NCBI RefSeq assembly: GCF_003790525.1 | Contig: NZ_CP033635.1 | Reading direction: 5' to 3' (one strand) | Source: Escherichia coli | GTDB lineage: Bacteria; Pseudomonadota; Gammaproteobacteria; Enterobacterales; Enterobacteriaceae | Length of the DNA: 64,000 nt | Shown: positions 51,001 through 54,000 of the stretch, piece after piece | Numbering within the stretch: the first letter of the stretch is position 1 | How the letters are laid out: each line of letters begins with the position of its first letter | Program-made: the position numbers

Positions 51001-54000
51001 CTGTGCGACGAGCACGGCATTGTGATGATTGCCGATGAAGTGCAAAGCGGCTTTGCGCGTACCGGTAAACTGTTTGCCATGGATCACTACGCCGATAAGC
51101 CGGACTTAATGACGATGGCGAAAAGCCTCGCGGGCGGCATGCCGCTTTCGGGCGTGGTCGGTAACGCGAATATTATGGACGCGCCCGCGCCGGGCGGGTT
51201 GGGTGGTACTTACGCCGGGAACCCGCTGGCGGTGGCTGCCGCGCACGCTGTGCTCAACATTATCGACAAAGAATCACTCTGTGAACGCGCGAATCAACTG
51301 GGCCAGCGCCTGACAAACACGTTGATTGATGCCAAAGAAAGCGTTCCGGCCATCGCGGCGGTACGCGGTCTGGGGTCTATGATTGCGGCAGAGTTTAACG
51401 ATCCGCAAACGGGCGAGCCGTCAGCGGCGATTGCACAGAAAATCCAGCAACGCGCGCTGGCGCAGGGGCTGCTTCTGCTGACCTGTGGCGCATACGGCAA
51501 CGTGATTCGTTTCCTGTATCCGCTGACCATCCCGGATGCGCAATTCGATGCGGCAATGAAAATTTTGCAGGATGCGCTGAAAGATTAATACGCAGAAGCA
51601 GGGTCAACGCAATAATGTCTGATACGCTGCGCTTATCAGGCCTGCAAACGACGTATTGATTATGTATGCCGGATAAGGCGTTCACGCCGCATCCGGCAAG
51701 TTGTATTGCCCAACTTCGCTAAATCTGGTGCTTTTTCAACAACGCGCGGAACTGATGATAGGTTAACCCCAGTAATTCAGCCGCGCGCTTCTGGTTATAT
51801 TTCCCCTGTTGCAAACTGAGTTGCAGCAACTCTTTTTCCTGCTGCATCTGAAACTCACGTAAATCCAGCGGCAGTGTTGGAAGCGAGGTGGTTTCTGAAA
51901 CGGCGATAGCGTCTTCAGGCGGACGCCGTTTAAAGGGATCAATAATGATGTCATCAAGCGGATAATCGCTGGTGCCGTGGCGATACACTGAACGTTCCAC
52001 CACGTTTTTCAATTCACGAATATTTCCCGGCCAGCGATAATTCAGCAATGTTTCTCTGGCGCGCTCCGTAAAACCCGGGAACAGAGGCAGCTTGATTTCC
52101 CGACACATCTGAATGGCAAAGTGTTCTGCCATCAGCATAATGTCGCTTTCGCGCTCGCGCAGGGGCGGCAGTTGCACTACATCGAAAGCCAGCCGGTCGA
52201 GCAGGTCAGCGCGAAAAGTACCTTCATTGACCATCGCCGGGAGATCGGCATTCGTCGCGCATACCAACCGCACATTCACCTGCAATGGCTGACTACCGCC
52301 AACGCGCTCCAGTTCACCGTACTCAATCACACGCAATAATTTTTCCTGCACCATCATCGGTGCCGTAGCGAGTTCATCAAGAAATAGCGTACCGCCATCG
52401 GCACGTTCAAATCTCCCAGGATGACGTTTTTGCGCACCGGTAAACGCCCCCGCTTCGTGACCAAACAGTTCGGAATCCAGCAGATTTTCATTTAACGCCG
52501 CGCAGTTAAGGGAAATAAACGGCCCTTGCCAACGGGAGGAGAGATAATGCAGGCGGCTGGCAATCAACTCTTTACCGGTGCCGCGTTCGCCGATGATGAG
52601 CACCGGTTTATCCAGTGGTGCGAGATGCGAAACCTGTTCCAGCACTTCGAGAAAGCTATTCGCCTCACCAAGTAAATTATCTTTGTATTCTGCCATGATG
52701 AAATTCGCCACTTGTTAGTGTAATTCGCTAATTCATCCTGGCATGTTGCTGTTGATTCTTCAATCAGATCTTTATAAATCAAAAAGATAAAAAATTGGCA
52801 CGCAAATTGTATTAATAGTTCAGCAGGACAATCCTGAATGCAGAAATCAAGAGGACAACATTATGGGTATTTTTTCTCGCTTTGCCGACATCGTGAATGC
52901 CAACATCAACGCTCTGTTAGAGAAAGCGGAAGATCCACAGAAACTGGTGCGTCTGATGATCCAGGAGATGGAAGATACATTGGTTGAAGTACGTTCTACT
53001 TCGGCGCGTGCGCTGGCAGAAAAGAAACAGCTGACTCGCCGTATTGAACAAGCGTCGGCTCGTGAAATTGAATGGCAGGAAAAAGCGGAACTGGCACTGC
53101 TGAAAGAGAGAGAGGATCTGGCGCGTGCGGCGTTAATTGAAAAACAGAAACTGACCGATCTGATTAAGAGCCTGGAACATGAAGTGACGCTGGTGGACGA
53201 TACGCTGGTGCGTATGAAGAAAGAGATCGGCGAGCTGGAAAACAAATTGAGCGAAACACGCGCTCGCCAGCAGGCATTGATGTTACGCCATCAGGCGGCA
53301 AACTCGTCGCGCGATGTGCGTCGTCAGCTGGACAGTGGCAAACTGGATGAAGCAATGGCTCGTTTCGAATCTTTCGAACGCCGTATCGACCAGATGGAAG
53401 CGGAAGCAGAAAGCCACAGCTTCGGTAAACAAAAATCGCTGGACGATCAGTTTGCCGAACTGAAAGCCGATGATGCAATCAGCGAGCAACTGGCACAATT
53501 AAAAGCCAAAATGAAGCAAGACAATCAATAATAACATCCAGGCGGCGTCCGAACGCGCCGCCGCTCATCGTCTAAGGAGTCCTTATGAGCGCGCTATTTC
53601 TGGCTATTCCGTTAACCATTTTTGTGCTGTTTGTTTTACCGATCTGGTTATGGCTGCATTACAGCAATCGTTCTGGTCGCAGTGAATTGTCGCAAAGTGA
53701 GCAGCAGCGATTAGCGCAACTGGCTGATGAAGCAAAACGGATGCGCGAACGTATTCAGGCGCTGGAATCCATTCTTGATGCAGAACATCCGAACTGGAGG
53801 GATCGCTAATGGCGGGCATTAATCTCAATAAAAAATTATGGCGTATTCCACAGCAGGGCATGGTCCGTGGCGTCTGCGCCGGGATTGCCAACTATTTTGA
53901 TGTACCAGTAAAACTGGTGCGTATCCTGGTGGTGCTGTCGATTTTCTTCGGTCTGGCGCTGTTTACCCTGGTTGCTTACATCATTTTGTCATTTGCGCTT

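Follow-up and report, generated by a model that had tools for sequence, protein, structure and literature searches.

Promoters that follow the sigma-54 consensus (TGGCAC-N5-TTGCW), for example glnAp2 and nifH, resemble the pspA promoter in having a bipartite -24/-12 element of fixed spacing, an enhancer-binding protein and IHF-assisted looping, but they carry a C at position -12 where the pspA promoter has a T. Bacterial sigma-54 promoters have kept this C in 96% of cases, and it has been reported to check basal transcription. The pspA promoter of Escherichia coli K-12 (PpspA; pspAp in EcoCyc) corresponds to the sigma-54 ChIP-seq site OS15, which has a fold-above-threshold (FAT) score of 21 and the motif TTGGCACGCAAATTGTA and is recorded in EcoCyc as experimentally confirmed (Bonocora et al. 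2015). Among genes with intergenic sites, only five, including pspA, are induced by sigma-54 overexpression, and in a microarray study, which listed pspA among known sigma-54 promoters, its expression differed 3.9-fold between sigma-54-overexpressing cells and cells lacking rpoN. According to the literature, the promoter has two upstream activating sequences (UASs), IHF acts at it by assisting looping, and PspF autorepresses pspF; the pspG promoter, by comparison, has one UAS and is induced ~20-fold, versus ~100-fold for pspA. In Salmonella, an 18-mer upstream of pspA identical to the one described below is bound by sigma-54, with a 17- to 23-fold induction.

The window studied here is a 64,000-nt stretch of E. 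coli DNA that is 99.95% identical over 64 kb to strain SMS-3-5, from which it differs by four SNPs (positions 23733, 32378, 48388, and 58067) and one 27-nt tandem duplication. In this window pspF and pspA are divergent genes separated by a gap of 166 bp (52697-52862). The features of the locus, with negative and positive numbers counted from the transcription start, are the following:

51719-52696, minus strand: pspF, sigma-54 enhancer-binding activator of 325 aa, ATG at 52696 (open reading frame and translation)
52691-52743 (-131 to -79), no strand assigned: putative PspF enhancer (UAS), from repeats and conservation, overlapping the pspF start codon
52699-52713 (repeat core -121 to -111), no strand assigned: candidate UAS box 1, TGAAATTCGCCACTT, from a direct repeat with 20-bp spacing
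52719-52733 (repeat core -101 to -91), no strand assigned: candidate UAS box 2, TGTAATTCGCTAATT, from the same direct repeat with 20-bp spacing
52762-52774 (-60 to -48), plus strand: second IHF-like box, AATCAGATCTTTA, found by pattern search as an exact match to WATCARNNNNTTR
52776-52789 (-46 to -33), plus strand: conserved IHF-like box, AAATCAAAAAGATA, favoured candidate IHF core on grounds of conservation
52796-52811, plus strand: sigma-54 core promoter, TGGCACGCAAATTGTA, from sequence, with GG at 52797-52798 (-25/-24) and GT at 52809-52810 (-13/-12)
52807-52814, plus strand: conserved -12 block, TTGTATTA, invariant in 10 genera
52822, plus strand: transcription start (+1), an A, placed from K-12 position 1368038 by sequence identity
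52822-52862, plus strand: pspA leader of 41 nt, from the mapped K-12 start to the ATG
52824-52836 (+3 to +15), plus strand: stem-loop CAGGA-CAA-UCCUG predicted by folding
52850-52855, plus strand: Shine-Dalgarno sequence AGAGGA in the leader
52863-53531, plus strand: pspA, 222 aa, negative regulator of PspF and membrane effector (annotation, NCBIfam)
53585-53809, plus strand: pspB, protein identical to K-12 and above the equivalog cutoff
53809-54168, plus strand: pspC, protein identical to K-12 and above the equivalog cutoff
54177-54398, plus strand: pspD, protein identical to K-12 and above the equivalog cutoff
54473-54787, plus strand: pspE, protein identical to K-12 and above the equivalog cutoff

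A previous sequence-only reading of this DNA had placed a sigma-54 motif upstream of pspA at 52796-52811, and TGGCACGCAAATTGTA sits at exactly those coordinates on the plus strand, 51 nt 5' of the pspA ATG (52863). When aligned with the characterised promoter of K-12 MG1655, this 16-mer core shows no difference, and the 166 bp between the two genes show three, all of them a T in the window and a C in K-12: at 52732, on the edge of UAS box 2, at 52816 (-6), and at 52839 (+18). The window also carries the exact 17-mer of OS15, and it shares with K-12 a 40-mer formed by the core and the adjacent AT-rich IHF-like box, which occurs unchanged in 5100 of the 5426 complete genomes of this species. K-12 likewise has the enhancer repeats, a leader of 41 nt, a divergent pspF and the operon genes in the order pspABCDE. 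The site is almost certainly the known sigma-54 (RpoN) promoter of the pspABCDE operon in its standard enhancer-dependent layout, a characterised textbook promoter of K-12 that was already known, as the sequence-only reading had recognised in calling it established biology. Its start site, its sigma-54 binding and its dependence on PspF and IHF are transferred to this strain from K-12 and Salmonella by sequence identity. The segment 52600-52960, which is 100% identical to SMS-3-5, is present in 5415 of 5426 complete E. coli genomes, and the intergenic haplotype of the window is a minority one (at least 99% identity in 379 of 5419 genomes). The pspF-pspA region also occurs on five or six 'plasmid' records of complete E. 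coli assemblies, which may reflect wrongly assigned replicons or large plasmids that carry a chromosomal segment.

Compared with the consensus TGGCACG-N4-TTGCW, TGGCACGCAAATTGTA agrees at 11 of the 12 specified positions and has the correct spacing, the sole mismatch being a T in place of the C at -12. The -24 element is a perfect match (TTGGCACG at 52795-52802, TGGCAC with the invariant GG), and the -12 element is exactly spaced (GG, 10 nt, and the doublet at 52809-52810) but has the doublet GT versus the consensus GC. The sequence-only reading had called the promoter canonical, which overstates the match in view of this GT. Taken alone, the motif is not beyond chance in 64 kb: with at most one mismatch, the consensus has two matches in the window versus 1.24 expected, and at least two were found in 28 of 100 shuffles. 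The idea that the -24/-12 match arose by chance and that pspA is driven by another promoter draws on these counts and also on the position of the other match, TGGCACGGCGTTTGCG at 38118-38133 (plus strand), which lies antisense within sapD and is probably itself a chance match, the published sigma-54 ChIP-seq tables containing no sap genes. We accept the pspA site because of its context and its identity to the characterised K-12 promoter, not because of the bare motif. The identical sequence in K-12 is a ChIP-seq-bound and EcoCyc-confirmed promoter, the capped transcript begins exactly 12 nt after the -12 T, an exact 19-mer containing the promoter is kept 5' of pspA as far as Proteus and a Thiotrichales metagenome-assembled genome (MAG) despite proteins that are only 57-72% identical, and a scan of the plus strand of the intergenic region detected no sigma-70-like promoter. 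A chance match has, in our estimation, a negligible probability and is effectively refuted already, so that the sigma-54 promoter remains our reading of the site. The window includes a second sequence bound by sigma-54 in published experiments, CTGGCAATAGATTTGCT at 8527-8543 (plus strand, 191 nt 5' of topA), identical to the ChIP-seq site OS14, which the one-mismatch consensus scan missed.

Transcription start data from K-12 agree with the position of the core. SMRT-Cappable-seq lists 1368037 as the capped 5' end of a transcript that spans all of b1304-b1308 (pspABCDE). We calibrated this table on 24 other forward transcription start sites, for which the listed base was a purine in five cases and the next base in 19; this skew towards the base following the listed one indicates that the table is 0-based for forward starts, so the pspA start is K-12 position 1368038, that is, the A at 52822. 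A start at this base puts the GG at -25/-24, the GT at -13/-12 and the ATG at +42 (41 nt downstream). Bonocora et al. also give a distance of 41 nt, measured from a start predicted at 19 bp from the motif centre, and the mapped K-12 start coincides with this predicted position. A mismatch to the mapped pspA start had been named beforehand as the observation that would speak against the promoter; we detected none, the capped end being where the -24/-12 geometry predicts it. With a core identical to that of K-12, a ChIP-seq peak over it in K-12 and this start geometry, the earlier assignment to a PspF-dependent sigma-54 promoter of pspA is well founded. The supplements of the 2016 Cappable-seq study contain no psp entry. 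A further capped 5' end in the K-12 SMRT-Cappable-seq data (listed at 1368566, window ~53351) lies in the 3' part of pspA, on a pspBCD transcript, and suggests an internal promoter for pspBC.

The same data bear on a different role for the site, in which sigma-54 polymerase would be mainly poised or non-productive and would chiefly repress or insulate the sigma-70 transcription of the divergent pspF instead of driving pspA. Most E. coli sigma-54 sites are silent under standard conditions according to the literature, and sigma-54 has been reported to repress some sigma-70 promoters. A standard sigma-70 scan of both strands of the intergenic region found nothing, and a looser one returned two weak candidates for pspF on the opposite strand (52782..52755 and 52744..52717, each with 8 of 12 positions); SMRT-Cappable-seq in K-12 lists no start for pspF (b1303). 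However, pspA belongs to the five intergenic-site genes induced by sigma-54 overexpression, a full-length capped pspABCDE transcript begins at +1, and the literature holds PspF and IHF at the enhancer, rather than sigma-54, responsible for the autorepression of pspF. We therefore consider a mainly poised complex very improbable and retain an active, PspF-dependent pspA promoter, which may nevertheless exert some repression as a secondary effect.

Upstream of the core, the two putative UAS boxes are bracketed by a 12-nt inverted repeat (52691-52702 and 52732-52743). A related motif, AAATTCACCAC, occurs at the PspF-dependent promoter of pspG, preceded at a distance of 20 bp by a second TTCACCA. 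The boxes fit the two UASs of the literature and the positions found in a synthetic-enhancer study, in which functional enhancers were located at about -108 and -128 with a phase-dependent position effect. The overlap of the putative enhancer with the pspF start codon is consistent with the reported PspF- and IHF-dependent autorepression of pspF. We placed the UAS and IHF coordinates by sequence analysis together with an enhancer location for the pspA promoter that we take to be about -80 to -126, and we infer from them the bases that PspF and IHF would contact. Of the two IHF-like boxes, the one at 52776-52789 is favoured as the IHF core because AAATCAATAAGATA or a close variant of it is kept in eight of 10 genera and because it occupies the same place as the IHF box of pspG, where a perfect box, AATCAATAGATTA, is found at the matching relative position (-44 to -32); the box at 52762-52774 was not conserved outside Escherichia in the 10-genus comparison. 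The sequence-only reading had delimited the divergent region as 52740-52862, an interval that contains the IHF region, the core promoter and the leader but omits most of the putative enhancer at 52691-52743. It is consequently not the whole divergent control region, and PspF-dependent activation needs the excluded part of the enhancer.

Other PspF-dependent promoters repeat this arrangement with variations. The E. coli pspG promoter shares with that of pspA the TTGTA at -12, the enhancer motif AAATTC(G/A)CCAC, whose partner lies at a distance of 20 bp, and an IHF-like box with ATCAA at about -45 to -32, but it has TGGCAT instead of TGGCAC, a 25-nt leader, an enhancer nearer to the promoter (-88 to -78, versus -121 to -91 for pspA) and no divergent activator gene. 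The Salmonella enterica pspA promoter, sigma-54-bound and induced as mentioned above, has the identical 18-mer TGGCACGCAAATTGTATT, and the pspA promoters of S. arizonae and S. diarizonae have the same layout; Salmonella differs in its diverged inter-element spacers, its leader of 45 nt and a leader stem GGGC/GCCC in place of the CAGGA/UCCUG of E. coli.

We extended the comparison to 10 genera. A genome scan with the exact 19-mer TTGGCACGCAAATTGTATT retrieved it directly 5' of pspA homologues in 19 species genomes, including those of eight Proteus species, Pantoea and the Thiotrichales MAG, with Psp proteins 57-82% identical for the Proteus, Pantoea and Thiotrichales loci. As such a scan is circular for conservation of the core, we added loci selected by protein alone, which represent six of the 10 genera (Klebsiella, Enterobacter, Lelliottia, Pluralibacter, Citrobacter, and Leclercia). 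Phylogenetic footprinting across the 10 genera showed the UAS boxes, the IHF-like box and the core to be conserved amid diverged spacers, the UAS boxes being kept as ATTC(A/G)CCA between diverged flanks. The block TTGTATTA was unchanged in all 10 genera, whereas the 4-nt spacer inside the promoter varied (CAAA, CCAT, GGAA, GCAT, AGGA, and GGAT). In the Thiotrichales MAG, the 19-mer promoter (1470) and pspA (1856) are separated by an additional small ORF, the N-terminus of which (MNTTQKILFAVFLATATSMSFA) resembles a signal peptide. Eleven further exact 19-mer matches, in Vibrio, Deltaproteobacteria, Bacteroidota MAGs and others, do not adjoin psp genes and may be unrelated sigma-54 promoters or chance occurrences.

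The only mildly new point of this analysis is how deeply the atypical T at -12 is conserved. Since GT is the natural sequence of the confirmed K-12 promoter and is invariant in the 10 genera, it belongs to the documented 4% minority of sigma-54 promoters and does not disqualify the site. The invariance of TTGTATTA next to a variable spacer argues that the -12 T is under constraint, and E. coli pspG likewise has TTGTA at this place. It is possible, although we hold it to be doubtful, that this T is a selected, regulon-specific feature of PspF-dependent promoters and not a tolerated defect. It could set the low constitutive level of PspA that the PspA-PspF feedback needs or, alternatively, could tune the response of the promoter to a constitutively active activator devoid of a sensory domain. 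The conserved -12 T offers a simple handle on how the -12 element balances basal leak against inducibility in enhancer-dependent transcription.

How the promoter would operate can be proposed from two sources. The present comparisons show that its sequence is identical to that of K-12, that it is correctly spaced from the mapped start, that it is conserved and that the psp genes are intact, whereas occupancy by sigma-54, dependence on PspF and IHF, and feedback by PspA are taken from the literature. Sigma-54 RNA polymerase would occupy the -24 (TGGCAC) and -12 (TTGT) elements at 52796-52811 as a closed complex that does not open by itself. PspF, produced from the divergent neighbour gene, would occupy two sites ~20 bp apart between -131 and -79, and an IHF-induced bend in the AT-rich DNA at about -60 to -33 would bring the hexamer of PspF into contact with the polymerase. 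PspF would then open the promoter by hydrolysing ATP, and transcription would begin from the A at 52822. The first product of the operon, PspA, would hold PspF inactive by binding it until inner-membrane stress, sensed via PspB and PspC, leads to the release of PspF from PspA. PspF on the enhancer would probably also damp the sigma-70 transcription of its own gene, because the enhancer overlaps the pspF start.

The locus encodes PspF and the other Psp proteins of this scheme, whereas rpoN and the IHF genes lie outside the window. The translation of pspF contains the GAFTGA motif and W56, scores 681 bits against the NCBIfam equivalog NF008622 (cutoff 529) and has the Pfam domains Sigma54_activat (E = 5e-63) and AAA_lid_14 but no N-terminal regulatory or sensor domain; it differs from K-12 PspF by one substitution (Y192H). 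PspA scores 443 bits against NF007974 (cutoff 336) and has two substitutions relative to K-12 (V69I and A116V). All six Psp proteins are full length and above the curated NCBIfam equivalog cutoffs, and the locus is 98.0% identical in DNA to that of K-12 over 3069 bp, with no indels, no internal stops, the K-12 gene order and three amino-acid changes in total. The psp locus is therefore intact, as had been claimed, but this conclusion comes from checking the six genes separately; it could not be drawn from the promoter alone, as the sequence-only reading had done. The phage-shock response of this strain, a close relative of SMS-3-5, is thus complete and apparently functional and has a standard control region, a result of little import beyond annotation. 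The puuE-pspF spacer contains sub-threshold Rfam matches to naRNA4 (REP-element-like) on both strands (51629-51709). It is 11 nt longer in the window than in K-12, a difference with no bearing on psp.

The leader may add a further level of control, at the mRNA, through a genus-specific 5'-terminal stem-loop, although a covariation test gave no support to this idea. Salmonella, Klebsiella, Pantoea, and Proteus leaders have other GC stems at the place corresponding to the predicted E. coli stem-loop. Single-sequence folds of the leaders were only mildly better than those of shuffled sequences, 24, 9, 7, 12, and 1 of 200 shuffles folding at least as well (24 of 200 for E. coli). A conserved leader hairpin was considered and is not claimed, RNAalifold on an automatic alignment yielding four pairs, none of them compensatory, at -1.9 kcal/mol. 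An Rfam search of the promoter and leader matched no RNA family.

Elsewhere in the window, a cluster between fabI and sapF (~29158-36677) encodes a TetR regulator, an RND adaptor, an RND permease, an outer-membrane subunit and an MFS transporter. This cluster is presumably absent from K-12 at this position and has the appearance of an accessory island for efflux. Its outer-membrane subunit gene holds the one indel that distinguishes the window from SMS-3-5; here the 27-nt unit GCAGCAGGTGATTCACGATCCCCGATT (~34248-34301) is present in two tandem copies versus one in SMS-3-5, an in-frame duplication of nine codons. Two hypothetical genes between cobO and rluB (SMS-3-5 RS09435 and RS09440; ~4090-5410, approximate positions after a 27-nt offset) may also be accessory.
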